Source of the DNA: Patescibacteria group bacterium
GTDB taxonomy: Bacteria > Patescibacteriota > Patescibacteriia > Buchananbacterales > UBA6539
Length of the DNA: 64,000 nt
Direction: 5' to 3'
Assembly: GCA_041662625.1 (NCBI GenBank)
Contig: JBAZSB010000001.1
Span: 51,572-115,571, forward strand
In this document: one piece after another, positions 3,248-48,544 of the stretch
Numbering within the stretch: position 1 is the stretch's first letter
Layout: every line of letters starts with the position of its first letter
Translations under genes and position numbers: made by a program
Notes under the pieces: model-generated
What the model was told of the DNA's origin: nothing
Seen by the model: the letters and a program-made list of their open reading frames with translations, nothing else
Database searches by the model: none

Positions 3248-5620
3248 ATGAATCTAAAAATATCCTACAATTGGCTCAAAGAATATCTTAAAACTGACAA
3301 ATCAGTTAATGAATTTGCCAAAGAGTTTTCTTTAAAAAGCCAAACTATCGACCGGATTGAACCAGTTAAGCCGAAATTTAAAGAGGTTATTACCGCTAAA
3401 ATTTTAGAAATTGAAAAACATCCCGGAGCGGATAAGTTAAAATTAGTTAAGCTGGATGCGGGCAAAACCAAACCAACAGTAGTTTGCGGCGCGCCAAATA
3501 TCAAAGCTGGCCAAGTTGTTCCTTTGGCCCTAGTTGGGGCAAAGGTTTTGGATCCAACTGAAGAAGGTAAGACTTTTACTATCAAAAAAGCCAAAATTAG
3601 AGACGTGGAAAGCAATGGCATGCTTTGCTCACAAAAAGAATTAGGTCTTGGCCAGGATCATACGGGAATCATGATTTTACCCGATAAAACGCCAATTGGG
3701 AAACCACTGGAAGAAATTTTAGATTTAAATGATTATCTTTTAGAAATTGAAGTTACCTCTAATCGGCCGGATGCCATGTCTGTGGTCGGCTTAGCCCGTG
3801 AGGCAGCCTCAGCGGTCGGTGGTAAATTCACTTTTGAAACCTCGCAGCCAAATTTAAAAGTCAGCCAAGCCAAACCGCTACTCGTTGAGGTCCTGGAGCC
3901 AAAACTTTGTCCCCGCTACCAAGCAGTAGTTATGACTGACGTCGAAGTCGGGCCTTCGCCTTTGTGGCTGCAAATTAGATTACTTTCAGCCGGTCTTCGG
4001 CCGATTAATAATTTAGTTGATATTACCAATTATATTTTGCTGGAATATGGCCGGCCGATGCATGTTTTTGATTACGAAAAGCTTGCCGGTCAAAAAATTA
4101 TTGTCCGCAAAGCCAAAGCGGGCGAGAAAATTTTAGCTTTAGATGGTAAGACTTATTCACTTAAGCCTGACCATTTGGTTATTGCTGACAGTAAAGTCCC
4201 CGTCGCTATCGGTGGGGTAATGGGCGGTGAAGATTCAGCCGCAACTTTTAAAACCAAAACCATTGTTTTTGAAGCGGCCGCTTTTGATCCGGTTTTGATC
4301 CGAAAAACCGCCCGTGAATTAAATTTACATTCTGAATCCTCTGATCTTTTTGAAAAAAATCTTCATTCTCAAACGACTTTAGACGGGATTTTGCGGGCAA
4401 TTGAATTAACGCAAAAATTAGCTAAAGGTATTGTCGCTTCTAATATTATTGATATCAGCGCTAAAAAATACCAGCCCACTAAAGTCAGTTTTGACCCCGC
4501 TAGTGTCAAGCGGCACTTAGGCGTGGAAATTCCCCTTGAACAAATTAAAAAGATTTTGGAATCCTTAGGATTTGGTGTTGCCGGATCTAAAATTTTAAAT
4601 GTGACTATTCCTTACTGGCGGGCTAACGACGTGGCTTTTGAGTATGATTTAATTGAAGAAATCGCCAGAATTTATGGTTATCATAATTTACCCACTCAGC
4701 TGCCCCAAGGCGAAATTCCCTTTGAGCCAAAAAATCCGTTGTTCTTTTGGGAAACTGTAGTTAAAAAAACTTTGGCCGCTTTAGGTTTCACCGAAAGCTA
4801 TAATTATTCCATGGTCTCCAAGGAATTGCTCCAGCAAGCCAAATTTCCGGCCCAAGATGCTTTAAAGATTTATAATCCTTTAAATGAGGAAATGGAATAT
4901 CTGCGGCCAACTCTTTTGCCCCAGGTTTTAAAGAATGTTGCTGATAATTTCAATAATTTTTCTGAGCAGAAAATTTTTGAGCTCAGTCATATCTATTTAG
5001 TCGGAAAAGATAACCAGTTGCCAACAGAACTGCCAAAACTGACCGGGGCGGTTTTGGGCCAAAATTCTTTTCTGGTGGCCAAAGGTGTAGTGGAAATTTT
5101 ACTGAAGGAAATAGGCATTTTTGGCTATCAGATGGTTTTGACTGATCCGGAGTGTCCTTTATGGGAAAAAGATCACACTTTGGATATTCGGCTTGGTAAA
5201 CAGTTTTTAGGGCAATTTGGCATTGTCCGAAAAAATATTTTAGAACATTTTGATCTTAAAAAGCCGGTGGCTTTGTTTGATTTTGATTTTAAAACTTTAG
5301 CGGAACTAGCCACAACCGTTAAAACTTACCGGCCCATTCCTGAATTTCCCAGTGTGACTCGTGATTTGGCGATTTTGGTTGACGAAAAATTAAGCTGGCA
5401 GGCAATTAGTCAATTAGTGAGTAAGGCCGATCCTTTGATTACTGAAGTTGAATATTTGAGCACTTTCGCTGACTCGGCTTTAGGCAAAGGTAAGAAAAGT
5501 TTGGCCTTGCGCTTGGTTTTTCGCAGTCGGCAAAGAACTCTAAAATCTGAAGAGGTAGATCAGGTCGTTGATAAAGTGATTAATAAGTTGGAAAAGAGTT
5601 TTGATGCTAAGTTGAGGTAA
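3248..5620 (+). CDS. pheT: phenylalanine--tRNA ligase beta subunit
   Basis: N-terminal tRNA-binding domain (NWLKEY...), B3/4 and B5 regions, 780 aa; ATG at 3248 with MNLKISYNWLKEYL. Confidence 0.9.
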   Translation: MNLKISYNWLKEYLKTDKSVNEFAKEFSLKSQTIDRIEPVKPKFKEVITAKILEIEKHPGADKLKLVKLDAGKTKPTVVCGAPNIKAGQVVPLALVGAKVLDPTEEGKTFTIKKAKIRDVESNGMLCSQKELGLGQDHTGIMILPDKTPIGKPLEEILDLNDYLLEIEVTSNRPDAMSVVGLAREAASAVGGKFTFETSQPNLKVSQAKPLLVEVLEPKLCPRYQAVVMTDVEVGPSPLWLQIRLLSAGLRPINNLVDITNYILLEYGRPMHVFDYEKLAGQKIIVRKAKAGEKILALDGKTYSLKPDHLVIADSKVPVAIGGVMGGEDSAATFKTKTIVFEAAAFDPVLIRKTARELNLHSESSDLFEKNLHSQTTLDGILRAIELTQKLAKGIVASNIIDISAKKYQPTKVSFDPASVKRHLGVEIPLEQIKKILESLGFGVAGSKILNVTIPYWRANDVAFEYDLIEEIARIYGYHNLPTQLPQGEIPFEPKNPLFFWETVVKKTLAALGFTESYNYSMVSKELLQQAKFPAQDALKIYNPLNEEMEYLRPTLLPQVLKNVADNFNNFSEQKIFELSHIYLVGKDNQLPTELPKLTGAVLGQNSFLVAKGVVEILLKEIGIFGYQMVLTDPECPLWEKDHTLDIRLGKQFLGQFGIVRKNILEHFDLKKPVALFDFDFKTLAELATTVKTYRPIPEFPSVTRDLAILVDEKLSWQAISQLVSKADPLITEVEYLSTFADSALGKGKKSLALRLVFRSRQRTLKSEEVDQVVDKVINKLEKSFDAKLR

Positions 5621-5704
5621 AACCGAATCAGGAATCATGAATTACGAATTAGGAGGCAAAGGAAATTCCTAATTCCTAATTCCTAATTCCTAATTCCTAA
5701 AAAT

Positions 5705-6001
5705 ATGTTTGAAACATCCAAAGACGTCCTTCTTCTGACCATTGCCGGAGCAGTGGCTTTGTTTACCATTTTTAGCTGCTGGGCGCTTTACTACGTGATT
5801 ATGATGCTGAAAAATGTCAGCAAAATGACCATTAGCGTGCGCGAGAAGCTGGAAACCGTTGATAAGATTTTAAAGCTAGTCAAAGAGAAACTGGAAAAAG
5901 GTTCAAATCACATGGCAGTTTTGGCCGATTCAGCAATCAAAATGGTGGGGTTTTTGATGGAAAAACAAAGTAAGGCTAGCGGTAAGAGGAAGAAAAAATA
6001 G
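5705..6001 (+). CDS. hypothetical small membrane protein
   Basis: 98-aa ORF with one TM and a lysine-rich tail; no SD; preceded by TTCCTAA heptad repeats. Confidence 0.35.
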   Translation: MFETSKDVLLLTIAGAVALFTIFSCWALYYVIMMLKNVSKMTISVREKLETVDKILKLVKEKLEKGSNHMAVLADSAIKMVGFLMEKQSKASGKRKKK

Positions 6002-11316: not shown

Positions 11317-11901
11317 ATGTCCCGATTAGTTATTAAAGGCAAAAAAGTAATTCTGCGGCCGCTGTCGCTCAAAGATGCGGGCCGGTTTTGCCAATGGTTT
11401 AGTGACCGGGAAGTGACAAAATTTTTAAGCATGTATGACCAGGCGCCAATAAGCATCAAAGAAGAAATGGAGTGGATAAGGAAATCTTATCGTGATAAGA
11501 GTAATTTTCGTCTGGCCATAGATACAATCGATGGCAGGCATATTGGCACTGTCAGTTTAAGTAGTATTGATGATTTTAATAAAAATGCGGAATACGGGAT
11601 ATTCATCGGAGATAAGAGATACTGGGGCCAAGGATACGGCACCGAAGCAGGAAAACTAATAGTTGACTACGGATTTAAAAAGTTAAAACTGCATCGGATT
11701 TACCTTCGTTATCTTGCTTATAATATCCGCGGCCTAAAATCATACCGGAAGGTTGGCTTTAAATCAGAAGGCAGAAAGCGCCAACATATCTTCCGCGACG
11801 GCTATTGGCACGATGAAATGCTGATGGGGATTTTAAGAGAAGAATTTTTAAAAAATCTAAAATCTCAAAAATCAAATCTCAGAACTGCAGCTAAAAAATA
11901 A
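11317..11901 (+). CDS. GNAT family N-acetyltransferase (RimJ/RimL-like)
   Basis: Acetyl-CoA binding motif WGQGYGTEA and GNAT beta-strand pattern; tandem paralog of the next gene. Confidence 0.75.
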   Translation: MSRLVIKGKKVILRPLSLKDAGRFCQWFSDREVTKFLSMYDQAPISIKEEMEWIRKSYRDKSNFRLAIDTIDGRHIGTVSLSSIDDFNKNAEYGIFIGDKRYWGQGYGTEAGKLIVDYGFKKLKLHRIYLRYLAYNIRGLKSYRKVGFKSEGRKRQHIFRDGYWHDEMLMGILREEFLKNLKSQKSNLRTAAKK

Positions 11902-11925
11902 AAGCTTTTAACTTGAAAGTATAAT

Positions 11926-12468
11926 ATGATTGCGCCAATTTTAAAAGGCAATAGAATAATCTTAAAGCCGATTGCGTCAAAGCATGCGGCGGTAAGATAT
12001 AGATGGTATACAGACCCCAAGGTTGCTGAATATCAGGACTTTTTGGACGTTTCGCTTAAAAAATTAAGGAACAGTATAATTAAAAGACGAAGAAGCAAAG
12101 ATTATTTTGGTTGGATGATATCTATCAAGCATAATAGGTTGATTGGTGAAATTCAGTTAAAAAGAATTAATTTTAATGATAAAGTAGGTGAACTGGCAAT
12201 TAATATCGGAGAAACAGAATTTTGGGGTCAGGGTTATGCTTCTGAGGCTATAAAGTTAGTTTCTAAATTCTTTTTCAACAGATTGAAATTGAATAGAATT
12301 GAGCTTGATGTATTTTCTAAAAATATTGGTGCAATCAAATGCTATCAAAAATGTGGTTTTGAGAAGGAGGGAGTTAAGAGAAAAGCGTGTTTTAAAAATG
12401 GAAAGTTTTATGATTTGATTTTGATGGGAATTTTAAGAGAGGAATGGCAAAAGAAGAATAAAAGTTAG
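11926..12468 (+). CDS. GNAT family N-acetyltransferase (tandem paralog)
   Basis: WGQGYASEA motif, collinear with the previous ORF (ILKPI..KHA.. vs ILRPLSLKDA..; ...LMGILREE both). Confidence 0.75.
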   Translation: MIAPILKGNRIILKPIASKHAAVRYRWYTDPKVAEYQDFLDVSLKKLRNSIIKRRRSKDYFGWMISIKHNRLIGEIQLKRINFNDKVGELAINIGETEFWGQGYASEAIKLVSKFFFNRLKLNRIELDVFSKNIGAIKCYQKCGFEKEGVKRKACFKNGKFYDLILMGILREEWQKKNKS

Positions 12469-12469
12469 G

Positions 12470-12512
12470 AATTTAGGCTCTAGGTGCCTAGTGCCTAAAT
12501 TCTTGATTCTTA
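12470..12512 (+). terminator. nested hairpin terminator after the GNAT pair
   Basis: aatttaggc-t-ctagg-tg-cctag-t-gcctaaatt is a perfect inverted repeat, followed by a T-rich tract. Confidence 0.45.
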
Positions 12513-12523
12513 ATTCTAAAAAT

Positions 12524-14293
12524 ATGTCCAAAGAAAAAAAATCAGATGATAAGTTGGGAGCCATGCGCCATTCAATATCACACTTGATGAGTATGGCGGT
12601 CCAGGAATTATATCCGCAATTAGGCCTCGGTGTCGGGCCGTCGATTGAAGATGGTTTTTATCAGGATTATGATTTGCCGGAACCGATTACACCGGAATTA
12701 TTGCCGAAACTGGAAAAGCGGATGCGAGAATTAATTAAAGAAAACATCAAGTTTGAACAGCATGATGTGGATTTTAAAGAAGCTTATAAGTTTTATAAAC
12801 ATGATCCTTATAAGACTTGGTTTATTGATGATCTGAAAGCTCGCGGAGAGAAAATAGTCAGTTTTTACAAATCCGGTTGGTTCGATAATCTCTGCGCCGG
12901 TCCGCACGTCAAATCCACCAAAGAAATCAACCCCGATGCTCTCAAACTGACTAAAATTGCTGGTGCTTACTGGCGCGGCGATGAAAAAAATAAAATGCTG
13001 CAGCGAATTTACGGCGTGGCATTCGCTACTGAAACGGAATTAAAGCAGCATCTTGATTTATTGGAAGAAGCCAAAAAAAGAGATCACCGAATTATCGGCA
13101 AAGATTTGGACTTGTTTGTTTTTTCCGATATAGTCGGGAAAGGCCTGCCGTTATTTACCGAAAAAGGCTCAATCATCAGGCGTGAGCTTGAAAGATTTAT
13201 TGTTGATGAGGAAATCAAGCGTGGCTATCAACACGTTTACACCCCGGATTTAGCTAAAGTGGAACTTTACAAAAAATCCGGTCATTATCCCTATTACAAA
13301 GATTCCATGTATCCGGTAATGAAGATTGATGAAGAAGAATTAATATTAAGGCCGATGACCTGTCCGCATCACTTTCAGTTGTACTTAAGCAAGCCGCATA
13401 CTTATAAAGAATTACCGATAAGAATTGCCGAACTAGCCAAACAATTTCGCTATGAAAAATCCGGAGAACTAAGCGGATTGATGAGAGTCCGGGCTTTCTG
13501 TTTGGCTGACTCGCACATCGTTTGCCGGAAAGATCAGGCCGAAAGCGAAATCAATAACGTTTTAGATTTGATAGAATATGTTGCTTCGGTGATGGGATTA
13601 CAAAAAGGCGAAAATTTTCGTTATCGCCTTTCTTTGGGTGATCGAAAGGATGAAAAGAAATATTATAAAGATGATCGGGCCTGGAAGTTTGCCGAGGATG
13701 TTTTAAGAGAAGTTTTACAAAAACGAAAAGCGCCATTCTTTGAGGCCGAAGGGGAGGCAGCTTTTTATGGCCCAAAAATTGACATCCAAATGAAAAATTT
13801 TGCCGGTAAAGAAGACACCGCTTTTACAGTTCAATACGATTTTGTCATGCCTAAACGGTTTGAACTTAATTATATTGATGAGAAAGGGAAAAAGCAGGAG
13901 GCAATAGTAATTCATCGTTCTTCCATTGGTGCGATTGAAAGAGTAATGGCATTTTTGATTGAACATCATGCCGGCGCTTTTCCGGTTTGGCTTTCGCCGG
14001 TCCAGGTCCAGATAATTTCTGTTACATCCGATCATATTAGCGCCGCCAAAGATCTGGCTGCAGAATTAAGAAATGCCGGCATTCGGGTATTTGTTGATGA
14101 TATGAATGAAACAGTCGGTTATAAAATCAGAAAAAGTGAGAAAGCTAAAATTCCCTATACTTTAGTGTTTGGTGAAAAGGAAGCCAAAAGTAATGATTTA
14201 AGTGTGAGGGTTCGCGGCCAAAAAGAGATGGAAATTATGAGCCGGAAAAAATTTATTGAAAAGGTAATTAAAGAAATTGCTGATAAAAAATAA
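12524..14293 (+). CDS. thrS: threonine--tRNA ligase (lacks the N-terminal TGS domain, retains the editing domain)
   Basis: RHSISHLM editing-domain motif near the N-terminus; class II catalytic core; C-terminal anticodon-binding domain. ATG at 12524 (MSKEKK). Confidence 0.9.
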   Translation: MSKEKKSDDKLGAMRHSISHLMSMAVQELYPQLGLGVGPSIEDGFYQDYDLPEPITPELLPKLEKRMRELIKENIKFEQHDVDFKEAYKFYKHDPYKTWFIDDLKARGEKIVSFYKSGWFDNLCAGPHVKSTKEINPDALKLTKIAGAYWRGDEKNKMLQRIYGVAFATETELKQHLDLLEEAKKRDHRIIGKDLDLFVFSDIVGKGLPLFTEKGSIIRRELERFIVDEEIKRGYQHVYTPDLAKVELYKKSGHYPYYKDSMYPVMKIDEEELILRPMTCPHHFQLYLSKPHTYKELPIRIAELAKQFRYEKSGELSGLMRVRAFCLADSHIVCRKDQAESEINNVLDLIEYVASVMGLQKGENFRYRLSLGDRKDEKKYYKDDRAWKFAEDVLREVLQKRKAPFFEAEGEAAFYGPKIDIQMKNFAGKEDTAFTVQYDFVMPKRFELNYIDEKGKKQEAIVIHRSSIGAIERVMAFLIEHHAGAFPVWLSPVQVQIISVTSDHISAAKDLAAELRNAGIRVFVDDMNETVGYKIRKSEKAKIPYTLVFGEKEAKSNDLSVRVRGQKEMEIMSRKKFIEKVIKEIADKK

Positions 14294-14354: not shown

Positions 14355-14834
14355 TCACTCTGGTGGGTTCTTGGGATCGCTGCCGTCGGCAGCGAACATG
14401 AAGTCGCCAAGCAGTGACACCTCAGCGATCTTCACTTCATCCGAACCAATTGTCCAGAGCTCGAAGATCAAAGTCTCCCTGGGTTTTGTCTTCAGCGGCT
14501 CAATGAGCCAGTTAGTCCAGACGATTCCGTCTTCGTCCAGATAACCGACTGCCACACTTGGCAGTGTTTCATTGCCGTGACGACACCCAAGGATGAACCC
14601 TTGGTCCCGGTTCGGATATTGACACCGAACATAGAAGGGAACGCCCTTCAGCTCGGTGGCATTCAGGGTAGTCACCCTGAAGCGGTGGACCAGAACCGAT
14701 TGGTTGGCCGAAACCCGAATGGGTGCGGGTTTTGCCGTCGGCCAGACGGGGTGGATGGTCTTTTGCCGGTTGGTGGCACAGCCACCAAAGACCATTGCCA
14801 ATAACATTACTACCAGTACCATGTACTTCCGCAT
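14355..14834 (-). CDS. hypothetical lipoprotein in a GC-rich islet
   Basis: Signal peptide with lipobox (..VFGGC); SD aaaggag 7 nt upstream; GC content visibly above backbone. Confidence 0.5.
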   Translation of the reverse strand: MRKYMVLVVMLLAMVFGGCATNRQKTIHPVWPTAKPAPIRVSANQSVLVHRFRVTTLNATELKGVPFYVRCQYPNRDQGFILGCRHGNETLPSVAVGYLDEDGIVWTNWLIEPLKTKPRETLIFELWTIGSDEVKIAEVSLLGDFMFAADGSDPKNPPE

Positions 14835-15093: not shown

Positions 15094-17226
15094 ATGAAGT
15101 ACCAAATAATAACTTTTGGCTGTCAGTTTAATCAATCTGATGCCGAAAAAGTTGCCACGGTTTTAGAAAAATTAGGTTTGCAAAAAGCCTTAGGCGAATC
15201 TGAGGCTGATTTAATTATGGTTTTAGCTTGTTCAGTCCGCCAGTCAGCTATCGACCGGATTTATGGCTTAAAGCAAAAATTTGAAAAGATTAAAAAAAAT
15301 AAACCTCTAATTACAGTTTTATCCGGTTGTGTTTTGAAATCAGATTTACCGAATATGAAAGAAATTTTTGACATCATTTTTAATATTAAAGATTTAGCCG
15401 AATTACCGAAGATGCTCAAAGTTCAAAGTTCAAAGCTCAAAGCTCTGGGCTATTTTTCTGTTCAGCCAAGCTATAACTCAGCTTTTCAAGCCTCCGTGCC
15501 GATCCTGACTGGCTGTAATAATTTTTGTACTTATTGTGTAGTGCCTTATGTTCGGGGGCGGGAAGTTTCCAGAAAAATGACAGAAGTAATAAAAGAGTGC
15601 AAAGATTTAGTTAGCAATGGCTACAAAGAAATTATTTTACTTGGCCAAAATGTGAATAGTTATAAAGACGGCAAAGTTGATTTCTCCAAATTATTAAAAA
15701 AAGTTGATGAAATTCCGGGAGAATACTGGCTTTCATTTGCTACCAGCCATTCTAAAGATATGTCGGATAAATTAATTAAAGTGATGGCAGATGGTAAACA
15801 TATTCTCCCATATCTTCATTTACCAGTGCAGGCAGGGGATAATGAGATTTTGAAAAAAATGAACCGGCGCTATACGGTGGCTCATTATAAAAGTTTGATA
15901 AAAAAAGTCAGAAAGGCTGTGTCGGGCATTGCCATTTCCACTGACGTAATTGTCGGTTTCCCTGGTGAAACTAAAGCGCAATTTAATAATTCAGTTAAAC
16001 TTTTTCAGGAAATCAAATTTGATATGGCTTATATTTCCCAATATTCACCGCGGGCCGGAACCGTGGCAGCTAAACTCAAAGATAATGTGCCAAAAGAAGA
16101 AAAAAAACGAAGAGACAAAGTTTTAACCAAGGTTTTGGCAAAGACCGCCTTGGAAAATAATAAAAAATTAGTCGGTAATCTGACTGAAGTATTAGTTGAT
16201 AGCTATAAAAACGGTTTTTGCTTTGGCCGGACTAAGGGGTTTAAAAATATTAAATTTGCTTCAGATATTGACTGGACCGGTCAGATTGTTCTGGTACAAG
16301 TAAAGGATTGCTATCAGTGGGGTTTAAGCGGCGAGTTGCCAAAAGTTGTTGTTGTTTTAGGCACAACTTCAGCCGGCAAAACTAAACTGGCTGTAAAATT
16401 AGCCAAGAAATTTAATGGTGAAATCATTTCCGCTGATTCGCGGCAGGTTTACCAAGGTATGGATATCGGTACAGGTAAGGATTTAGCCGAGTATGGCAAA
16501 GTACCTTATCATTTGATTGACGTTGCCGATCCAAAAGCCCAGTTTACAGTAGCGAGGTGGCAAAAGTCAGCCTATGAAGCAATTAATGACATTTTAAAGC
16601 GAGGCAAACTGCCGATTGTCTGTGGCGGCACTGGCTTGTATATTTCTGCTCTAGTTGAAGGCTACAATTTGTCAGAGACCAGAGATCAGAGACCAGAGAT
16701 CAGAGACCGGTTAGATAATTTAAGCCTCAAACAGCTTTTAATCAAATTGAAGAAAGTTGATAGTAAAACTTTCGGAGTCATAGATAAAAAAAATCGGAGA
16801 CGAGTTCAGCGGGCTTTAGAAATTTATTACCAGAGCGGAATTCCCAAATCAGAGCAGCCAAAAAATCAAAAGCCGCCCTATGAATTTTTGCAGTTGGGTA
16901 TGACTTTCCCTAAGCCATTTTTGCACCAGCGGATCGACCAGCGATTAAAGCACCGTTTGGAAAAAGAAGGGATGATTGCTGAAATCAAACGTCTGCACCG
17001 TCAGGGCGTAAGCTGGCAGCGGCTGGATGATTTTGGCTTGGAATATCGTTTTGTCTCCAGATATTTAAAAAAAGAAATCAACCAAGAGGAAATGTTTAGC
17101 AGCTTAAGCAGAGCGATTAAAGATTTTGCCAAGCGCCAGATGACCTGGTTCAGACGTGATAAAAAAATACTTTGGCTTAAAAATTATAAACAGGCAGAAA
17201 TTCTAGTCAAAAAATTTATCAGGTAA
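15094..17226 (+). CDS. miaB-miaA: bifunctional tRNA A37 modification protein: MiaB methylthiotransferase (MTTase N-domain, radical SAM, TRAM) fused to MiaA tRNA dimethylallyltransferase
   Basis: N-terminus FGCQFNQSD (MTTase), radical SAM CNNFCTYC, TRAM at about aa 360-415. From about aa 417 a MiaA P-loop begins (VVVLGTTSAGKTKLAVKLA...ISADSRQVYQGMDIGTGK) and runs 290 aa in one open frame. Confidence 0.8.
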   Translation: MKYQIITFGCQFNQSDAEKVATVLEKLGLQKALGESEADLIMVLACSVRQSAIDRIYGLKQKFEKIKKNKPLITVLSGCVLKSDLPNMKEIFDIIFNIKDLAELPKMLKVQSSKLKALGYFSVQPSYNSAFQASVPILTGCNNFCTYCVVPYVRGREVSRKMTEVIKECKDLVSNGYKEIILLGQNVNSYKDGKVDFSKLLKKVDEIPGEYWLSFATSHSKDMSDKLIKVMADGKHILPYLHLPVQAGDNEILKKMNRRYTVAHYKSLIKKVRKAVSGIAISTDVIVGFPGETKAQFNNSVKLFQEIKFDMAYISQYSPRAGTVAAKLKDNVPKEEKKRRDKVLTKVLAKTALENNKKLVGNLTEVLVDSYKNGFCFGRTKGFKNIKFASDIDWTGQIVLVQVKDCYQWGLSGELPKVVVVLGTTSAGKTKLAVKLAKKFNGEIISADSRQVYQGMDIGTGKDLAEYGKVPYHLIDVADPKAQFTVARWQKSAYEAINDILKRGKLPIVCGGTGLYISALVEGYNLSETRDQRPEIRDRLDNLSLKQLLIKLKKVDSKTFGVIDKKNRRRVQRALEIYYQSGIPKSEQPKNQKPPYEFLQLGMTFPKPFLHQRIDQRLKHRLEKEGMIAEIKRLHRQGVSWQRLDDFGLEYRFVSRYLKKEINQEEMFSSLSRAIKDFAKRQMTWFRRDKKILWLKNYKQAEILVKKFIR

Positions 17227-17286: not shown

Positions 17287-18825
17287 TTAACCTTTCAACT
17301 TATTGATTAGGATATCATTGATCATCTCGGGATCAGCCTGGCCTTTAGTGGCCCGCATCACCTGACCGATGAAAAATTGAATCACAGTTTCTTTGCCCGC
17401 CTTATACTGTTCAACCTGCTTGGGGTTAGCGGCAATAATTTGATCAACTATTGAATCTAGCTCATCAGTAGTTTGACTTTTACCTAAATCTTCTTCAGTC
17501 ATAATGTCGGAGGGATCTTGTCCGGTTTCATACATTCTCTCCAGCAGTTTTTGCGCCACAGTGGAATTGACTTTATTCTGGTAAATAATGGTGATAAATT
17601 CGGCGAAGTTTTCCGGTGTGATATTAACGATTTCCACTAAATCCTTGCCGTCTTTATAAACGATGGCCATTAATTTATTGGTTAGCCAATTGGTCGTCAG
17701 TTTGGCTAGTTTAGCTTTTCCCTTTTGCCAAACTTCCTCATCAGTGCCTTCGACCTCGCCCAAAGCAATCAGCCAGGCGCGCAGTTCAGAAATCACTTGC
17801 TCAAAAAATACAGCCAGGTTTTTATCATCGGTCAAAGTTCTGGCATTTTCGGCGGATAATTCAAATTCTTCAATAAAACGCTGGCGGCAGGCTTGGGGAA
17901 GTTCAATCAAGCTGTTTTTAATGGCTTCAACATCAATACCGTTTGGTGCCTGCGGACTGAAATTTAAAGGCGGTAAATCGGGTTCGGGGAAGTAGCGATA
18001 ATCGGAAGCTTCTTCTTTGGTCCGTTGCTCCTCGGTAATACCTTTGTTTTCATCCCAACCGCGGGTTGATTGAGTCGCTGGCGGTTTACCTTCTTCCCAA
18101 AGTTTAGTTTGCCTTTTAATTTCGTATTCCAAGGCCCGTTCAACGGCTTTAAAAGAATTAAGGTTTTTAATTTCCGTCTTTGGGCTCAGCTTTTTAAGGT
18201 CAATTTTATCAGCGGGTTGGTTGGTCAAAGAAATATTAGCATCACAGCGCAGATGACCTTTTTCCATATCCGCCTCAGAGATATCCAAATAGCGCATAAT
18301 CAGCCTCAGCTCCTGCATAAAAGTTTTTGCTTCCGAGGGGGTGCGAATATCAGGTTCAGTGACAATCTCCATCAGCGGTGTGCTGGAGCGGTTATAATCA
18401 ACTAAAGTACTTTTACCATCAACTGAATGGAAGTTTTTAGCGGCATCTTCTTCCAGGTGGAGTCGGGTAATGTCGATTCGGCGCGGCCCAGCCTTAGTTT
18501 CGATATCTAAAAAGCCCTTAATGCCGATTGGCTGGTCATACTGAGAAATCTGGTAAGCTTTTGGCAGGTCGGGATAAAAATAACTTTTCCGGTCAAATTT
18601 TGAAATTTTAGGAATATCACAGTTGATCGCCAAAGCCGCCATTACTGACCACTCAATTGCCTGACGGTTGATTACGGGTAAAACTCCAGGATGGCCCATG
18701 CAAATCGGGCAAACCGTGGTATTGGCCGGCTTGTCTTCACCGGTATTATCACAGCCGCAGAACATCTTTGATTTGGTTTTGAGTTGAACGTGGATTTCTA
18801 ATCCAATAACTGGTGTCAATTTCAT
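17287..18825 (-). CDS. gatB: aspartyl/glutamyl-tRNA(Asn/Gln) amidotransferase subunit B
   Basis: MKLTPVIGLEIHVQL start; GatB/YqeY C-terminal domain. Confidence 0.9.
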   Translation of the reverse strand: MKLTPVIGLEIHVQLKTKSKMFCGCDNTGEDKPANTTVCPICMGHPGVLPVINRQAIEWSVMAALAINCDIPKISKFDRKSYFYPDLPKAYQISQYDQPIGIKGFLDIETKAGPRRIDITRLHLEEDAAKNFHSVDGKSTLVDYNRSSTPLMEIVTEPDIRTPSEAKTFMQELRLIMRYLDISEADMEKGHLRCDANISLTNQPADKIDLKKLSPKTEIKNLNSFKAVERALEYEIKRQTKLWEEGKPPATQSTRGWDENKGITEEQRTKEEASDYRYFPEPDLPPLNFSPQAPNGIDVEAIKNSLIELPQACRQRFIEEFELSAENARTLTDDKNLAVFFEQVISELRAWLIALGEVEGTDEEVWQKGKAKLAKLTTNWLTNKLMAIVYKDGKDLVEIVNITPENFAEFITIIYQNKVNSTVAQKLLERMYETGQDPSDIMTEEDLGKSQTTDELDSIVDQIIAANPKQVEQYKAGKETVIQFFIGQVMRATKGQADPEMINDILINKLKG

Positions 18826-21318: not shown

Positions 21319-23658
21319 TTATAATTTAAAATCCTCTTGCCAGGGCTGGATAACTCTTTTTTTATTCTTGCCTTCACTGTAGTTGAAGACCGGCCCGATG
21401 GCAAAAAACATTTTTCCTTCCTGATCAGGATAAATCACGATAATATAATTGATTCCATCAAGATATTCATCTAGACTATTTGCGGCATCAATCTGATAAC
21501 TGAAACTATATTTATTCTGAATGCCGGCTTTTTGGACATCGCCCATTACCCCTCTGATATGTTTATCAAAATTATTAATGAAGCTATAATCTTCAGCCGT
21601 CAAAGGTTCATTTTCTAGTTCCTGGCGAGCAACTGCGGTTATTCTTTGCAAGATTATTTTTAGATTTTCCAGCCGTTCTGCTGATTTGGCACTGGGTAAA
21701 ATGATTTGCAAACTTTTAAAACCATCCATTACCATTTGGGTATTAGCTAGAAGTTGGCTGTAAATTTCGACTTGGGGTTCAATATAGCCATACGGAAAAT
21801 GCGGGATCAAGCCGCCGCTTTCCATCGCACTGGTTTTTTCAAAATTAATTTCCCGGTGATTGGCTACCCAGGCCGCTAAGCCAGTATTAAGAGATTTTTT
21901 GGCCCAAGCTGTTGTTTGCATGAAAGTCGGTAAACCCGTTGTCGACTGGTTGCTGAAATTTTTTAGTGAAGCAAGCAGCGCCAGATAGGAATTATCATGC
22001 CAGTTATACTGGTCAAATTTTTTGATTTCATTTTTAAAATTATCAAGATTTTGGCCATAAAATTCATAGTAATCATTTTTGTTTTCTGTCAGGATTCCCT
22101 TGGCAGTTTCATTACCCAAAAGATTAAAAAGATCCAGGCCACTGGGTAGGCAGCGGTAAGCTTCATCATCCTTGGGGCAGGCAGTGAAAGGTAAGATTTG
22201 GTCTTTAGTTTTTGGCTCTAGGTATTGACCAACACTTTGGCCGCTTAAAGAATGAAACAAGCTATCTTCTAAGAGGTAATAATTTCTAAGTAATTTTAAA
22301 CCAACTTGCTCTTTTTTGTCTTGGCTGCCGCCTAAAACAGCAGTGAATTCAAAGCTGCTGATTTTTCCCCGGAGATCGGCGAGCTGTTTTTTTACTGTTT
22401 CCGCATCAGCGGAAAAAATTTCATCCAGCTGATAATTGGCGCCAAACAGACTTTCTAAAGCTTGATGATAGTCAAGGTAAGTCAAATTATTTTCCAAGCC
22501 TTTAAAGAAGGAGATTGATTTATAGATATTCGCCCAGCGATTTTTTAAATTTTGGTTGCTCGCTAAATCATGGCTTAAATAAAGCCCAGCTAAAAAATTA
22601 ATCTTTTGATCCTCTTCGTCAAGCAAGCAATTGGGGCAGTCATCACTAATATACCAAAGCGGGAATATAACATCATTAAGCCAGGTGATGGCCAAATAAT
22701 AATTTTTTAGTTTTTCGGAAGTTTGATATTGGGGTGGGACTTCATAATTTAGGTAACTTTTTTGGTAGAGGAAAATTGGCGAAGCAGCCGTTTTTGCTTT
22801 AGTGCTGATTAACTCAATTTCTTGGTCAATTTCCTTGGTTAAATATTCCGGAACGCTAACTTTATAAACACTGGCTTCCTGAGGTGAAAAATATTTGTTG
22901 CTGGTGCCAATTGCTTCTTTGATTTGTTTTGGCTCGGGAGAAAGCAGTTTTAAAGCAATACCTAAATAGGCCATTTCGAGCCGGTTGGCTTCAGTAATAA
23001 TATCGGTTTCGATGCCAAACTGCTGGTACCGGCTTTCATAGCGGAATTTAGTCTGGTTGTAAAGATCATTTAGCAGGCCCCAAAGAGAAGAATAAAATAT
23101 TTCTTGCTCCGTTTCTTTGTAAATTAGGTGGAGGGTATCTTGATAGAGGCCGATGATTGAGTCCGAACTGATGAAAATTGGTAAATCATTTTCTTTAACC
23201 AGTTTATAATTACTTTCCCAGTCGGTCAGCTGGCTGCTGAAGGGGTTTGCCATAACCACAAAGCCGTTTTCTCCAAGCTTTGGCAAAGCACTTTCCAATT
23301 TAATTTTTCGGGAAAAATCACGGTAGTTGACCACTTGCTCTTTAATATTTTCAATTGGCAAAGGATAAGTAGGGGCCGCTGGTGTATACGAAATTTCAAT
23401 TGGTTGGTAGAACGAAGAAATAAACTGTTTTTCTTTGGCCAGCTGTGATTGGGGAGTGTTGCCATTTTCGCCATTAGCGTTGACATCACCGGAACTTGGC
23501 AAAATAGGAACGTTGCCATTGACGTTTGTTTCTGGTGTCGGTTCCGGAGTTAATGGTTGGGGCCTTTGAAAATAGAAAAATAAAAAAACGCTGGTAATGA
23601 TTAGCAGGATTATTACTATCGCGATCCCAATTAGGTAAATAATTCTGTTGTCCTCCAT
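21319..23658 (-). CDS. hypothetical 779-aa protein with N-terminal TM anchor, embedded in the dTTP-synthesis operon
   Basis: Long uninterrupted ORF; TM at residues about 8-30; low-complexity Pro/Thr/Asn linker then a large soluble region; no recognisable catalytic motifs. Confidence 0.5.
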   Translation of the reverse strand: MEDNRIIYLIGIAIVIILLIITSVFLFFYFQRPQPLTPEPTPETNVNGNVPILPSSGDVNANGENGNTPQSQLAKEKQFISSFYQPIEISYTPAAPTYPLPIENIKEQVVNYRDFSRKIKLESALPKLGENGFVVMANPFSSQLTDWESNYKLVKENDLPIFISSDSIIGLYQDTLHLIYKETEQEIFYSSLWGLLNDLYNQTKFRYESRYQQFGIETDIITEANRLEMAYLGIALKLLSPEPKQIKEAIGTSNKYFSPQEASVYKVSVPEYLTKEIDQEIELISTKAKTAASPIFLYQKSYLNYEVPPQYQTSEKLKNYYLAITWLNDVIFPLWYISDDCPNCLLDEEDQKINFLAGLYLSHDLASNQNLKNRWANIYKSISFFKGLENNLTYLDYHQALESLFGANYQLDEIFSADAETVKKQLADLRGKISSFEFTAVLGGSQDKKEQVGLKLLRNYYLLEDSLFHSLSGQSVGQYLEPKTKDQILPFTACPKDDEAYRCLPSGLDLFNLLGNETAKGILTENKNDYYEFYGQNLDNFKNEIKKFDQYNWHDNSYLALLASLKNFSNQSTTGLPTFMQTTAWAKKSLNTGLAAWVANHREINFEKTSAMESGGLIPHFPYGYIEPQVEIYSQLLANTQMVMDGFKSLQIILPSAKSAERLENLKIILQRITAVARQELENEPLTAEDYSFINNFDKHIRGVMGDVQKAGIQNKYSFSYQIDAANSLDEYLDGINYIIVIYPDQEGKMFFAIGPVFNYSEGKNKKRVIQPWQEDFKL

Positions 23659-32892: not shown

Positions 32893-32948
32893 GCTAATAA
32901 CTAATCATATTAACGGTGAGCGGTAAACGGTTACCGGTTAACAACTCT

Positions 32949-33677
32949 ATGACCAATCATTTAATTCAGATCAAAAATCTCAAAAAAGATTATACCACCG
33001 ATGAAGTCACTACCAATGTTTTACGGGGCGTCAGTTTTGACATTGCCGAAGGCGAATTTGTGGCCATCATGGGGCCGTCTGGTTCGGGCAAATCAACCTT
33101 GATGCATATTTTAGGTTTTTTGGATCGGCTGACTAGTGGGGATTATCTTTTTGAAGGCCGGAGTGTGGCGGATTTTTCTGACGATGAGTTGGCGATTTTA
33201 CGTAACAAAAAAATTGGTTTTGTTTTTCAAAGTTACAATTTATTGCCCCGGACTTCGGTTATAGAAAACGTCAAGTTGCCGTTGGTCTATTCGGGCATTC
33301 CGGTCAAAGAGATCGAAGAACGGGCTCAGCAGGCAATAAAATCAGTCGGTCTTTATCACCGGATTAATCATTTGTCTAATCAACTTTCCGGTGGTGAACA
33401 GCAGCGCGTTGCCATTGCCCGGGCCTTGGTCAATGATCCGAAGGTAATTTTTGCTGATGAGCCGACGGGCAACCTCGATTCCAAATCTGGTACTCAAATT
33501 ATGGCGATTTTGGAAGGCTTAAGCGAAAAAGGCCATACTATTATTTTGGTTACTCATGAGCAAGACACGGCCGATCATGCCAAACGAGTAATCAAGTTAC
33601 GCGATGGTTTGATTGTTGCTGACGAAATTGTTACTAATCGCCGGCGGGTGGCTGAGGATGGTGAACTTAGAAAGTAA
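32949..33677 (+). CDS. ABC transporter ATP-binding protein (MacB/LolD/FtsE type)
   Basis: Walker [11 protein letters not shown]-loop, signature [15 protein letters not shown], Walker [15 protein letters not shown] 32949 preferred over GTG 32916. Confidence 0.85.
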
Positions 33678-33781
33678 CAATTAACATTTAACAATTAGCA
33701 GTTAACTTCTAATCTTGTCTTCAAATGAAACTCTCGGAGAGGCGTTAATTATTAATGGTTAATTGTTAACTGTCGTTATCT

Positions 33782-35023
33782 ATGAATCTCTATCAGACTG
33801 CCAAAGGTTCAATAAAAACTTTAGCCTCACGAAAAATGAGGGCTTTTTTAACGATGTTGGGAATGATTATCGGGATTTCTTCAGTCATTATTATTATGGC
33901 TGTTGGTGCCAGTGCCCAAGGTTTAATTTTAAATCAGATAAAAAGCGTTGGCTCAAACTTGATTGGTATTTTGCCTGGCGCTTCTGATGAAGATGGACCG
34001 CCCGCTTCGGTAATGGGAATTTCCGTCACGACTTTAAAATATGATGACGTTATAGCGATTGCCCAACCGCAAAACGCGCCGCACGTGGTGGCCAGTGCCG
34101 CTTATGTCAAAGGTGTGGGCAGCATCAGCTGGCAGAATCGTAACATTGACACTAATTATACCGGTACAACTGCCAATTATATTGAAGTAGAAGACACCCA
34201 AGTTGCAATTGGTCGGTTTTTTACAGTTGATGAGGAAAAAAATTTGTCGCGCGTTATTGTCCTGGGTAGTCAGGTCGCGGAAAATTTGTTTGACAACACC
34301 GATCCGCTGGGTCAGCTGGTCAAAGTCAAGCGGGAGCAATTTCGGGTAATTGGTGTGATGAAAGAACGCGGATCGGCGGCTTTTCAAAATGAAGACGACC
34401 AGATTTTTATTCCGTTTAAAACCGCACAAAAACTGATTTTAGGCATTGATCATGTGGGTTTTGCCCGGGCCAAAGTTGACGATGCCAAAAATTTAGACCA
34501 GACGATTAATGATATTAAAGCTACTTTAAGAGAGAGGCATAATATTTCCGATCCGTCACAGGATGACTTTACTGTCCGCAGTGTTCAGCAGGCACTCGAT
34601 ACTTTTACCAGTGTGACTAGCGCTTTGACCTTCTTTTTAGCCGCCATTGCCGCCATTGCTTTACTTGTCGGTGGTATCGGGATTATGAATATCATGCTAG
34701 TTTCAGTTACCGAAAGAATCAGAGAAATCGGGTTGCGTAAAGCCGTTGGTGCCAGAAATAAAAATATCAGAAATCAATTTTTAGTTGAAACTATTATAAT
34801 TTCCCTCGGCGGTGGAATAATTGGTGTAATTTTTGGTATTATCATTGCCGCCATTGTTGCTTTAGTTGCTCAGTATTTAGGTTATGCCTGGGATTTTATC
34901 GTTACCATTAATTCCGTTATTGTTGCCTGCAGTGTTTCTATCATAATTGGTTTAGTTTTTGGAATTTATCCAGCAGTCAAAGCAGCAAAGTTGGATCCGA
35001 TTGAGGCGCTACGTTATGAATGA
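33782..35023 (+). CDS. ABC transporter permease (FtsX/MacB-like, with large periplasmic domain)
   Basis: N-terminal TM, about 250-aa periplasmic domain, three C-terminal TMs with FtsX signature. Confidence 0.8.
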   Translation: MNLYQTAKGSIKTLASRKMRAFLTMLGMIIGISSVIIIMAVGASAQGLILNQIKSVGSNLIGILPGASDEDGPPASVMGISVTTLKYDDVIAIAQPQNAPHVVASAAYVKGVGSISWQNRNIDTNYTGTTANYIEVEDTQVAIGRFFTVDEEKNLSRVIVLGSQVAENLFDNTDPLGQLVKVKREQFRVIGVMKERGSAAFQNEDDQIFIPFKTAQKLILGIDHVGFARAKVDDAKNLDQTINDIKATLRERHNISDPSQDDFTVRSVQQALDTFTSVTSALTFFLAAIAAIALLVGGIGIMNIMLVSVTERIREIGLRKAVGARNKNIRNQFLVETIIISLGGGIIGVIFGIIIAAIVALVAQYLGYAWDFIVTINSVIVACSVSIIIGLVFGIYPAVKAAKLDPIEALRYE

Positions 35024-35127
35024 GGAATTTAGGAATTTAGGAAACTAGGAATTAGAAAATTAAAATTGGTAAATTATTAAAGAAGTCTAAATTCCTAACT
35101 TCCTAATTTTCTAACCTCCTGATCATC

Positions 35128-36462
35128 ATGAATAATAATAAACCACAACCAATCAAACGCTGTCGACGAAGTAAATTCATCCTCTTTAATGCGTTTCATT
35201 TTTATTGTGATATTATTGTGCCTTTTCGAATAGCACTGATGTCGCTTAGGCGCAACAAAGTCAGAACTTCTTTGACGGTTTTAGGTATTGTCATTGGTAT
35301 TATGGCAGTTATCACAGTCATGTCTGCCGGTGATGGCTTGAAAGGTTATGTTACCGGTCAAATTGAAGCTTTTGGTACTGATTTGATTGAGGTTGAAGTT
35401 AAAGTGCCAAATACCAGTCAGATGTCCGCTTCCAATGCGGGCGGCCAGGCGATGGGAATTCAAATTACCACCTTGAAGTTAGAAGATGCTGAAGCGATAA
35501 AAAAATTACCAAACATTGAAGATAATTATTCAGTTTTAATGGGAATGGAAATTGCTTCTTATAAAGGAACTAATAAGCAGACACTTTTATGGGGGACCAC
35601 CGGTTCCTTTATTAATGTTGATACGACTAAAGTAGCTGAGGGCCGGTTTTTTACCGATGAAGAAGATAGAAGTTTGGCTAACGTGGTGGTAATCGGTCAG
35701 ACCGTTAAAGATAAGCTTTTTGGTTTGGATGATCCAATAAATAAATCAATTAAACTTGGGCGAGAAAAATTTATGGTCATCGGCGTGATGGAAAAACGTG
35801 GTGCCATTGCTTTTTTTGATATGGATAATTTTATTTATGTGCCGGTACGGACTCTGCAGAAAAAGCTGATGGGTGTTGAATATCTTTCGGTAATTATGAA
35901 TAAAGTTTATAACAAAGACATTGCTGATGAAACCGTATCTGATATTAATTCACTTTTGCGCCAGCGCCATGATATTTTGGGCAATAACCCGGACAAAGAT
36001 GATTTTGCCGTAATGTCCATGGCCGAAGCACTGGATATTTACGATACGGTTTTTGGCGCGATTAATTTACTTTTAGCGGCGATTGCCGGCATTTCACTTT
36101 TGGTCGGTGGTATCGGTATTATGAATATTATGTATGTTTCGGTTACCGAGCGGACTTATGAAATTGGCTTGCGCAAGTCTGTTGGCGCTACCGGCCATAA
36201 TATTTTATGGCAGTTTTTGTGGGAGGCAATTGTCATTACTCTTTTTGGTGCATTGATTGGCTTTGTTTTGGGTATTGGTTTGTCTTATCTAATTTCTGTC
36301 ATTGCTACGGCTCAAGGTATTGGTTGGAAATTTGTCATTTCTCTAAACTCAATCGTGCTAGCAATTGGTGTATCTTTTATCATTGGTTTAACTTTCGGCG
36401 TATTTCCGGCCATAGCCGCTTCTAGACTTGACCCGGTAACGGCATTACGCTATTCTAAATAA
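35128..36462 (+). CDS. ABC transporter permease (second FtsX/MacB-like paralog)
   Basis: Same architecture as the previous ORF; start could alternatively be 35239 (MSLRRNKV). Confidence 0.8.
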   Translation: MNNNKPQPIKRCRRSKFILFNAFHFYCDIIVPFRIALMSLRRNKVRTSLTVLGIVIGIMAVITVMSAGDGLKGYVTGQIEAFGTDLIEVEVKVPNTSQMSASNAGGQAMGIQITTLKLEDAEAIKKLPNIEDNYSVLMGMEIASYKGTNKQTLLWGTTGSFINVDTTKVAEGRFFTDEEDRSLANVVVIGQTVKDKLFGLDDPINKSIKLGREKFMVIGVMEKRGAIAFFDMDNFIYVPVRTLQKKLMGVEYLSVIMNKVYNKDIADETVSDINSLLRQRHDILGNNPDKDDFAVMSMAEALDIYDTVFGAINLLLAAIAGISLLVGGIGIMNIMYVSVTERTYEIGLRKSVGATGHNILWQFLWEAIVITLFGALIGFVLGIGLSYLISVIATAQGIGWKFVISLNSIVLAIGVSFIIGLTFGVFPAIAASRLDPVTALRYSK

Positions 36463-46656: not shown

Positions 46657-47538
46657 ATGATTCAGCGTGTGATGGTTGAGTTAGATAATCGTTGTGGGCG
46701 TGATTGTCCGCAGTGCTATCTAGGGTCGGATAAGCGGGGTTTGCCTTTGACTGAAGCGGTCAGGCGGGTCAAAATTCTGCAGGCACTGGGTATACCTAGT
46801 ATTAAGCCGATTTTTGGCGAGGTGCTAGATCACCCGGAATATCTGCAGCTGTTTCCACTTCTTGGCCACCATTATTGCCTTAGCTCGGGCGCCGCGATAG
46901 TTTCCGATCCGTCAATCCGGCAGCAGCTGGTTCAAAATGGTATCAAGGCGGTGAGGCTAAGTGCTCATTACTTTGACCAAGGGCGCTGGTCGCCGGTGCC
47001 GCTATCAGTTGTCCATGAAGCGATCCGATTGTTGCACGAGGTTAGTATCAAGGCCGAAGCTTTCACTATACTCTGGCGTGGTAACTACCAGTCAGTATCA
47101 GCAATCTGCCAGCGGGCAATCGCGGATGGTATCTCTACGCTACGGTTCATCAACTTGATGCCGATCCGTCCCGAACTACGATCCGATGTTCTAACCGTCG
47201 CTGAGATTCAGCAGGTCTTTGACCAGGTGGCATTAATGCGTCAGCAGATTCCTAAAGATCAGTTGACCATTAAATTGCTCGGAAACTTCGGGCCAAGACC
47301 TGGGAGTTTAGGACAAGAGTTATCTCAGAGGCGATGCTATTGTCCTGCCGGTCGGGAGAGTATCTACATCGATATTGATGGTTTAGTCTACCCTTGTATG
47401 TTTCTGCGGGGGCCACAGTGGGTGATAGGTAGATTGAACAGAAGAAAATTGACAATCAAGCAAATAACCGATAGGTTTGATCGTCGAACCTGTCAACTAC
47501 TGATACAAACGAAGGAAAGGAGCTTGAACGATGAGTGA
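46657..47538 (+). CDS. radical SAM enzyme with C-terminal SPASM/twitch-like Cys motif
   Basis: CGRDCPQC (Cx3Cx2C) at residues 13-20; C-terminal CYCPAGRESIYIDIDGLVYPC. SD aggagggg; GC-rich. Confidence 0.7.
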   Translation: MIQRVMVELDNRCGRDCPQCYLGSDKRGLPLTEAVRRVKILQALGIPSIKPIFGEVLDHPEYLQLFPLLGHHYCLSSGAAIVSDPSIRQQLVQNGIKAVRLSAHYFDQGRWSPVPLSVVHEAIRLLHEVSIKAEAFTILWRGNYQSVSAICQRAIADGISTLRFINLMPIRPELRSDVLTVAEIQQVFDQVALMRQQIPKDQLTIKLLGNFGPRPGSLGQELSQRRCYCPAGRESIYIDIDGLVYPCMFLRGPQWVIGRLNRRKLTIKQITDRFDRRTCQLLIQTKERSLNDE

Positions 47539-48439: not shown

Positions 48440-48485
48440 GATATGATCGGGCGATTGTATCAAGGATGTTGAGCCATCATTTTGA

Positions 48486-48517
48486 TCAGGCGGAGACCGC
48501 ACGGTTTCCGCTTTTTT
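48486..48517 (+). terminator. terminator after the hisG-like gene
   Basis: caggcggagaccgcacggtttccgcttttttt; about 80% identical to the terminator at 46034-46067. Confidence 0.5.
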
Positions 48518-48544
48518 TTATTTTTATGGTATAATATAGGCATC

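Follow-up and report, generated by a model that had tools for sequence, protein, structure and literature searches.

The stretch of DNA analysed here (the window) comprises 64,000 nucleotides of contig JBAZSB010000001.1 (positions 51,572 to 115,571 of the forward strand) from the assembly GCA_041662625.1 of a Patescibacteria group bacterium. Between thrS and gatB it contains an uninterrupted open reading frame (ORF) of 710 codons in which the sequence of a tRNA methylthiotransferase, MiaB, is continued by that of a tRNA dimethylallyltransferase, MiaA (Table 1). The encoded protein is identical to the NCBI entry MFA6254453.1 ('MiaB [Patescibacteria group bacterium]'), which is located on a contig of 922 kilobases (kb). 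On the basis of the data described below we consider it, with a probability of about 0.8, to be a bifunctional enzyme for the modification of adenosine 37 (A37) of tRNA which arose by loss of the stop codon between miaB and miaA.

Table 1. Features of the miaB-miaA fusion and its conserved neighbours (positions refer to the window; aa, amino acid residues; L numbers designate loci of homologues)
Feature	Residues (aa)	Position	Strand	Basis
miaB-miaA fusion ORF	710 + stop	15094..17226	+	ATG start, one uninterrupted frame
Methylthiotransferase N-terminal domain UPF0004	2-90	15097..15363	+	PF00919, E 3.7e-16
Radical-SAM core	136-303	15499..16002	+	PF04055, E 6.9e-30
Radical-SAM cluster motif CNNFCTYC (C141/C145/C148)	141-148	15514..15537	+	sequence reading
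TRAM beta-barrel, divergent	~356-414	16159..16335	+	own hidden Markov model, AlphaFold2 strands, TIGR01574 span
Two-residue linker L415-P416 between last TRAM strand and MiaA beta1	415-416	16336..16341	+	AlphaFold2 strands
MiaA module including insertion domain	417-710	16342..17223	+	PF01715, TIGR00174
MiaA P-loop GTTSAGKT	423-430	16360..16383	+	sequence reading
MiaA catalytic motif DSRQVYQGMDIGTGK	448-462	16435..16479	+	sequence reading
thrS, conserved upstream neighbour		12491..14293	+	Pfam; also in L082, L083, L086, L091
gatB, conserved convergent downstream neighbour		17287..18825	-	Pfam; also in L081, L086, L088, L091

Both halves of the protein are recognised by the models of their respective families over practically the entire length. 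The NCBIfam equivalog TIGR01574 (MiaB) matches residues 2-415 with model positions 1-436 of 437 and a score of 378 bits (cut-off 355.3), and the equivalog TIGR00174 (MiaA) matches residues 418-697 with model positions 1-285 of 288 and 248 bits (cut-off 148.65). The Pfam IPPT model PF01715 is completely covered (model 1-243 of 243; residues 451-689, E = 1.2e-68). The UPF0004 domain provides C10, C46 and C79 as ligands of the auxiliary [4Fe-4S] cluster, and the MiaA signature pattern, consisting of the P-loop GxTxxGK[ST] and a DS(x)Q...DIGT(A/G)K segment, is satisfied by GTTSAGKT and DSRQVYQGMDIGTGK. An earlier model-generated note on this DNA had quoted these two motifs together with CNNFCTYC, each of which was located at the residues given in Table 1, and had described one 710-residue ORF passing from a complete MiaB with TRAM domain into a complete MiaA without a stop, a description which is borne out by the single frame and by the passing of both equivalog cut-offs. 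The domain scan suggested there recovered PF00919, PF04055 and PF01715 but not the TRAM model PF01938, which has no match at E <= 0.01 in the fusion protein. The TRAM domain is nevertheless judged to be present, because the MiaB equivalog match runs to the last positions of the model and hence includes the TRAM region, because a hidden Markov model (HMM) built from the TRAM columns of homologues scores 83.6 bits on it, and because the structure prediction reveals a beta-barrel at residues 363-414. The presence of a complete MiaB followed by a complete MiaA in one chain is thus confirmed at the sequence level.

The methylthiotransferase subfamilies are closely related to each other, and sizeable scores were also obtained with the models of MtaB (TIGR01579, 291.7 bits) and RimO (TIGR01125, 236.5 bits), such that the N-terminal module might be conceived as an enzyme for 2-methylthio-N6-threonylcarbamoyladenosine (ms2t6A) formation or for the modification of ribosomal protein S12, fused to MiaA by chance. 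We regard this assignment as highly improbable. Both scores remain under their cut-offs (357.05 and 356.95, respectively), whereas the MiaB cut-off is passed; the best solved relative is a MiaB (E = 5e-73), compared with 5e-43 for the best RimO structure; and the fusion partner makes the obligatory substrate of MiaB, which favours a MiaB.

The structure of the 710-residue chain was predicted by AlphaFold2 (AF2) using an alignment of 110 fusion sequences as input. The mean predicted local distance difference test score (pLDDT) of 93.0 is accompanied by a predicted template modelling score (pTM) of 0.88, which, for a chain composed of two enzymes, indicates that the relative placement of the modules is confidently predicted. 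The last strand of the TRAM barrel spans residues 410-414 and strand beta1 of MiaA residues 417-423. Among the solved structures, the MiaB half corresponds end to end to MiaB of B. uniformis (7MJV-7MJZ), and the MiaA half, likewise over its whole length, to the enzymes of B. halodurans (2QGN/3EXA, E = 8e-60), S. epidermidis (3D3Q) and E. coli (2ZM5/3FOZ). Superposition of the predicted fold by Foldseek, with template modelling (TM) values normalised to the target, resulted in a TM of 0.86 for B. uniformis MiaB and in a TM of 0.88 and a root-mean-square deviation (rmsd) of 2.3 Å for the tRNA-bound E. coli MiaA (3FOZ/2ZM5). The MiaA half agrees more poorly with the apo structures 3EXA and 3D3Q, although these are closer relatives (rmsd ca. 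10 Å, TM 0.70), and the better fit to the tRNA-bound state suggests that its insertion domain is predicted in a closed, RNA-clamping conformation.

In comparison with B. uniformis MiaB (36% identity), the MiaB half shares the UPF0004 domain with its three cysteines, the radical-SAM CxxxCxxC motif and the TRAM domain, but it is ca. 20-40 residues shorter, its TRAM is too divergent to be recognised by PF01938, and its C-terminus runs on into MiaA after two residues; in sister proteins of the fusion the TRAM domain is wholly absent. The MiaA half (33-37% identity) shares the P-loop, the DSxQ motif and the insertion domain with the solved MiaA structures but, with strand beta1 starting two residues past the TRAM barrel, has no free N-terminus.

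Adjacent but separate miaB and miaA genes occur in some relatives and indels are possible in metagenome-assembled genomes (MAGs), so that two genes might have been falsely merged by a frameshift or by the disappearance of a stop codon. The homologues collected from NCBI, JGI, ENA and Logan assemblies and clustered at 90% identity argue strongly against such an error. In 119 of the best 120 hits, at identities of 41-76% with the query, one chain of about 620-780 residues carries both the cysteine motif of the radical-SAM domain and the P-loop of MiaA, the sole exception being a protein of 432 residues on a 2.2-kb contig; in the collected set as a whole, 134 of 273 proteins are fused according to module-specific HMMs. 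The nearest relative (P0002, 76% identical) is located in a locus (L086) which is fully syntenic with the window and contains, in this order, dnaE, a hypothetical gene, a GNAT gene, thrS, a small minus-strand ORF, the fusion and gatB. Between codons 395 and 440 the two genes agree in 25 codons, differ synonymously in 18 and encode a different amino acid in only 3, which implies a single frame under purifying selection right across the join; the junction sequence WGLSGELPKVVVVLGTTSAGKT itself is unchanged in this homologue, and the other two frames both hold stops at this place. Neither ATG nor GTG is available at the junction for a separate translation of MiaA, the only candidate being a TTG at codon 415 lacking a good Shine-Dalgarno sequence. 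The gap between the end of the TRAM match and the beginning of the MiaA match is short, amounting to 2-30 residues (median 4) in the 111 TRAM-containing fusions. With the in-frame join recurring in four independent data sources, an origin of the fusion as an assembly artefact is effectively refuted by sequence comparison; the earlier note had asked for a check of the junction against relatives, and these do not all possess separate genes.

The alignment of 110 fusions, 96 of which include the N-terminus, revealed C46, C79, C141, C145 and C148 to be invariant throughout and C10 to be present in all 96 sequences covering it. In the MiaA module, G423, G428 and K429 of the P-loop, the triad D448, S449 and R450, and the residues G511, G512, N567, R570, R573, E576, Q682 and W685 are equally invariant, and T425 is found in 108 of the 110 sequences; the P-loop itself reads GTTSAGKT in the fusion versus GPTASGKT as the family majority. 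Fused domains at times decay into binding modules, and 23 fused homologues do without the TRAM domain, which usually clamps the RNA, so one of the two halves might be a pseudo-enzyme, either MiaA as a dead tRNA-binding domain serving MiaB or MiaB as an inactive appendage. The invariance of the catalytic signatures of both modules and the equivalog cut-offs passed by both halves make this very improbable, and no second miaA or miaB was found within the 64-kb window. Genes for mutS or mutL were also not found there.

The fusion is conserved over a deep divergence, down to ca. 41% identity, and after clustering at 50% full-length fusions account for only about 15-20 of the representatives. According to the names in the source databases, from which the taxonomic spread was taken, all named carriers are Parcubacteria-type Patescibacteria, i.e. 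Buchananbacteria, Nealsonbacteria, Minisyncoccales and Paceibacterota. A scan of genome contigs retrieved mostly ordinary MiaBs, as the generic CNNFCTYC pattern prevailed in it, and hence does not show how the fusion is distributed among taxa, but it brought to light the gene order described below. The bacterium of the window, a member of the Patescibacteria, is ultra-small.

The arrangement of the separate genes in other bacteria indicates how the fusion might have been formed. Among 80 bacterial loci retrieved by means of the query, 35 have miaA on the strand of miaB and downstream of it. The two genes are separated by ca. 4.5-5.7 kb in many Clostridia, and in [Clostridium] ultunense (L037, 5989-12748) the genes in between are mutS and mutL; the same-strand cluster miaB-mutS-mutL-miaA, in which the A37 genes bracket mismatch-repair genes, is conserved and was also noticed in about 25 other Firmicutes loci (among L012-L079). 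In Raoultibacter, Senegalimassilia, Coriobacteriaceae, Atopobiaceae and one Oscillospiraceae MAG, miaB directly abuts miaA, and in Raoultibacter (L001) and the Oscillospiraceae locus (L002) only one stop codon parts the two ORFs, which share a reading frame. Candidates for fusions outside the candidate phyla radiation, namely tblastn matches over the full length in Coriobacteriia and Oscillospiraceae, were rejected as pairs of adjacent genes. Within the Patescibacteria an unfused locus thrS..miaB-miaA..gatB recurs whose genes overlap or nearly do so, with ATGA (L005), TAATG (L083), a 13-nucleotide overlap (L089) or an 8-nucleotide gap (L091) at the contact.

The fusion has order and strand in common with these pairs and with the Firmicutes clusters, and differs from them by the missing stop codon and the resulting single polypeptide. 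The loss of one stop codon is sufficient to make a fusion, and we propose that an upstream miaB and a downstream miaA lost the intervening stop codon and a short spacer in the Parcubacteria branch of the Patescibacteria. The MiaB-first order of the domains would then follow from an ancestral gene order with miaB upstream of miaA. MiaB indeed precedes MiaA, in the reverse of the reaction order, as had been pointed out previously; since the domain order copies the gene order seen in Clostridia, Coriobacteriia and unfused Patescibacteria, the reversal carries no mechanistic message. A divergent TRAM-less fusion with a linker of ca. 20 residues, P0158 (L085, 55-2217), was detected on a contig of 48% GC in the context of MerR, HisKA-GGDEF and ParA, and both its composition and its neighbours appear unlike those of Parcubacteria. 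Its position near MerR resembles an unfused miaB-x-miaA-hflX-merR locus, and it may therefore represent a separate fusion event.

The locus exists in several further states with respect to the TRAM domain. A census by module-specific HMMs of the first 273 proteins collected, carried out before the relatives of P0265 (see below) were added, found 111 proteins of the type MiaB-TRAM-MiaA, 23 MiaB-MiaA proteins without TRAM, 114 stand-alone MiaBs with TRAM, 9 consisting of the MiaB core only and 7 stand-alone MiaAs. The segment deleted in the 23 TRAM-less fusions is exactly the TRAM region (residues ca. 356-414): the C-terminal helix of the radical-SAM part ('...KEKKRREKVLxxIL') enters strand beta1 of MiaA ('KLIVILGPTASGKT') after 1-20 residues, and all Fe-S cysteines and MiaA motifs are kept. 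One of these proteins, P0095, is encoded in a locus (L081) syntenic with the window, with gatB and tmk downstream, and its AF2 model has a pLDDT of 91.8 and a pTM of 0.76. To our knowledge, every characterised methylthiotransferase has a TRAM domain. The domain acts as a generic RNA clamp, as its exchange between MiaB and MtaB leaves the specificity for the i6 or t6 group unchanged (PMC2952846).

TRAM-less MiaB homologues of about 323-390 residues are common in Patescibacteria (among proteins P0265 and P0274-P0392). Neighbourhoods were inspected for 11 unfused TRAM-less miaB genes, and in 9 of them miaA is located just downstream, either overlapping or abutting miaB (five cases: L005, L072, L083, L089 and L091) or one or two genes further on (four cases: L042, L084, L088 and L090). 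A split-off TRAM ORF was not found near any of the 11 genes. In two lineages an unrelated small gene separates TRAM-less miaB from miaA: the WWE3 locus L042 contains an ORF for a membrane-like protein of 185 residues with no Pfam hit (1368-1922), and L084 one for a TPR/SPOR protein of 253 residues (5125-5886).

Based on the family assignments, the C-terminal MiaA module would transfer the dimethylallyl group of dimethylallyl pyrophosphate (DMAPP) onto N6 of A37 in tRNAs reading UNN codons, forming N6-isopentenyladenosine (i6A37), and the N-terminal MiaB module, a radical-SAM enzyme with two [4Fe-4S] clusters, would subsequently add the 2-methylthio group to give ms2i6A37. Previous studies demonstrated that A37 stays strictly unmodified in miaA mutants and that the i6 group is needed by MiaB (PMC2952846). 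With ARAGORN, no tRNA gene, and hence no A36-A37-A38 substrate, was detected within the window and nine loci of Patescibacteria. We infer both catalytic activities of the fusion from its conserved sequence, and the sequential synthesis of i6A and then ms2i6A by one polypeptide appears well supported. The covalent connection would, in addition, ensure a 1:1 production and the proximity of both modules.

A different matter is whether the tRNA is passed directly between the modules. The titles of the structure entries 3FOZ/2ZM5 and 7MJV and the summary of the MiaB structure in PMC10702137 indicate that the flipped-out A37 is held in a pocket of its own in each enzyme. As each module has to accommodate A37 in this manner, the anticodon loop must exit the MiaA site before it can reach the MiaB site, which precludes a classical tunnelling-type channelling and permits at most an intramolecular hand-off with the tRNA partly held. 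The statement in the earlier note that the fusion implies substrate channelling is accordingly not established, as the A37 pockets are separate and the fused and split states alternate at one syntenic locus; true channelling or hand-off can only be inferred.

Several observations weigh against a cooperation of the modules. Both the fused and the unfused states are found at the syntenic thrS..gatB locus, and a neighbour-joining (NJ) tree of the MiaB core mixes fused, TRAM-less and stand-alone forms. This tree suggests either that such changes took place repeatedly or that some gene calls are fragmentary, and it is too crude for counting fusions, fissions or losses of TRAM. Moreover, a search with P0265, itself a stand-alone TRAM-less MiaB, gave 70 proteins of this same type among the best 120 relatives; they derive from Kuenenbacteria, Berkelbacteria, Moranbacteria and others. 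TRAM loss as a consequence of fusion was rejected for this reason and is rather a widespread trait of Patescibacteria. Two related TRAM-less miaB genes (L082 and L087) have no miaA within 4 kb.

These findings are readily accommodated if the two enzymes are both active but arranged like beads on a string, their link being kinetically and structurally meaningless and a by-product of genome streamlining. The fusion would then be a neutral or mildly economical merger of translationally coupled neighbours, and the tRNA would be released and rebound between the two steps. To this explanation we assign nearly even odds. The single stop codons or ATGA/TAATG overlaps which part the genes of relatives, the interleaving of fused and split forms in the tree and at the same locus, the loss of TRAM also from unfused MiaBs and the separate A37 pockets all fit to it. 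It accounts less well for the retention of the fusion down to ca. 41% identity with very short linkers, for the module placement, which is confidently predicted for the TRAM-less form as well, and for the close downstream position of miaA next to most TRAM-less unfused miaB genes.

Alternatively, the modules of the bifunctional enzyme might form one rigid unit in which the binding of tRNA is a joint task and the anticodon loop is passed on by MiaA to MiaB. The short linkers, the AF2 model as one body and the linkage of TRAM-less miaB with miaA are compatible with such a shared tRNA grip but do not prove it, and we put this arrangement forward tentatively, with the odds leaning against it. A more far-reaching proposal, which we consider unlikely, is that MiaB and MiaA of Patescibacteria constitute an obligate physical unit, covalent in the present genome and non-covalent in those with merely overlapping genes, in which the anticodon-stem clamp of MiaA replaces the TRAM grip and one binding event serves both prenylation and methylthiolation. 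The anticodon loop would swing between the MiaA and MiaB pockets, and the supply of MiaB's tRNA grip by the MiaA clamp would explain the repeated loss of TRAM. If true, an obligate unit would predict a hitherto unrecognised MiaA-MiaB interaction in other bacteria.

The surroundings of the fusion in the window contain a few further features. Between thrS and the fusion, an ORF on the minus strand (14355-14834) encodes a protein of 159 residues which has no Pfam hit and whose N-terminus (MRKYMVLVVMLLAMVFGGCATN...) resembles that of a lipoprotein, and a small minus-strand ORF in matching position is present in L086 (4510-4878). Upstream of thrS are tandem GNAT acetyltransferase genes (11317-12468, plus strand; 194 and 180 residues, Acetyltransf_3), of which L086 has only one. 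A DUF3160 protein of 779 residues (21319-23658, minus strand) adjoins thyA and tmk. An ABC/MacB-FtsX transporter set (32916-36462), situated in a GC-rich stretch (32-34 kb, GC 0.478), precedes the gene for a right-handed beta-helix or NosD-like protein of 989 residues (37202-40171, plus strand), which is probably a surface protein. A SPASM-domain protein, the ATP phosphoribosyltransferase HisG and a 4Fe-4S dicluster protein are encoded one after the other (46657-49531, plus strand) in a region of elevated GC content (0.485 at 46-48 kb versus ca. 0.40). One would not expect a solitary hisG in the reduced genome of a member of the Patescibacteria, and the elevated GC content might hint at a foreign origin. 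No Rfam match at the gathering threshold was obtained in the window, promoter-like sites occur at chance level (6 observed versus 7.6 expected), and the weak terminator-like hits inside the fusion ORF were not taken as signals.

Full-text searches of the literature yielded no publication dealing with a MiaB-MiaA fusion or with the genes for tRNA modification in Patescibacteria, in accordance with the previous remark that no characterisation of the fusion was known. Single chains whose two catalytic modules act one after the other on one nucleotide are known from other tRNA positions: in MnmC, two domains of one chain perform the last two steps of the synthesis of 5-methylaminomethyl-(2-thio)uridine, mnm5(s2)U34. 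Similarly, TrcP converts C to U and then U to pseudouridine within a single chain (PMC9553926). MiaB-MiaA shares the principle with both but differs in chemistry, folds and tRNA position, and its sequential action in one binding event is hypothetical. Each half is ordinary for its family, and the unusual feature is the architecture. Beyond this, the protein is a fairly ordinary fusion of well-known housekeeping enzymes. It is mildly surprising to the specialist and mostly useful as a natural experiment on the coupling of MiaA and MiaB and on the role of TRAM.

In the source databases the fusions are named 'MiaB' or occasionally 'MiaA', and the TRAM-less forms 'MiaB/RimO family'. On the basis of such single-function names, surveys of Patescibacteria genomes would record either MiaA or MiaB as missing. 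Provided that both modules are active, the fusion would represent a natural one-chain ms2i6A37 synthase and thus a compact tool for the heterologous installation of the full modification. It also provides a Rosetta-stone argument for a physical cooperation of MiaA and MiaB, which is not documented for the separate enzymes. Finally, a single syntenic locus whose genes may be fused or separate and may include or lack TRAM may serve as a natural experiment on the purpose of this domain and on the coupling of the two steps.

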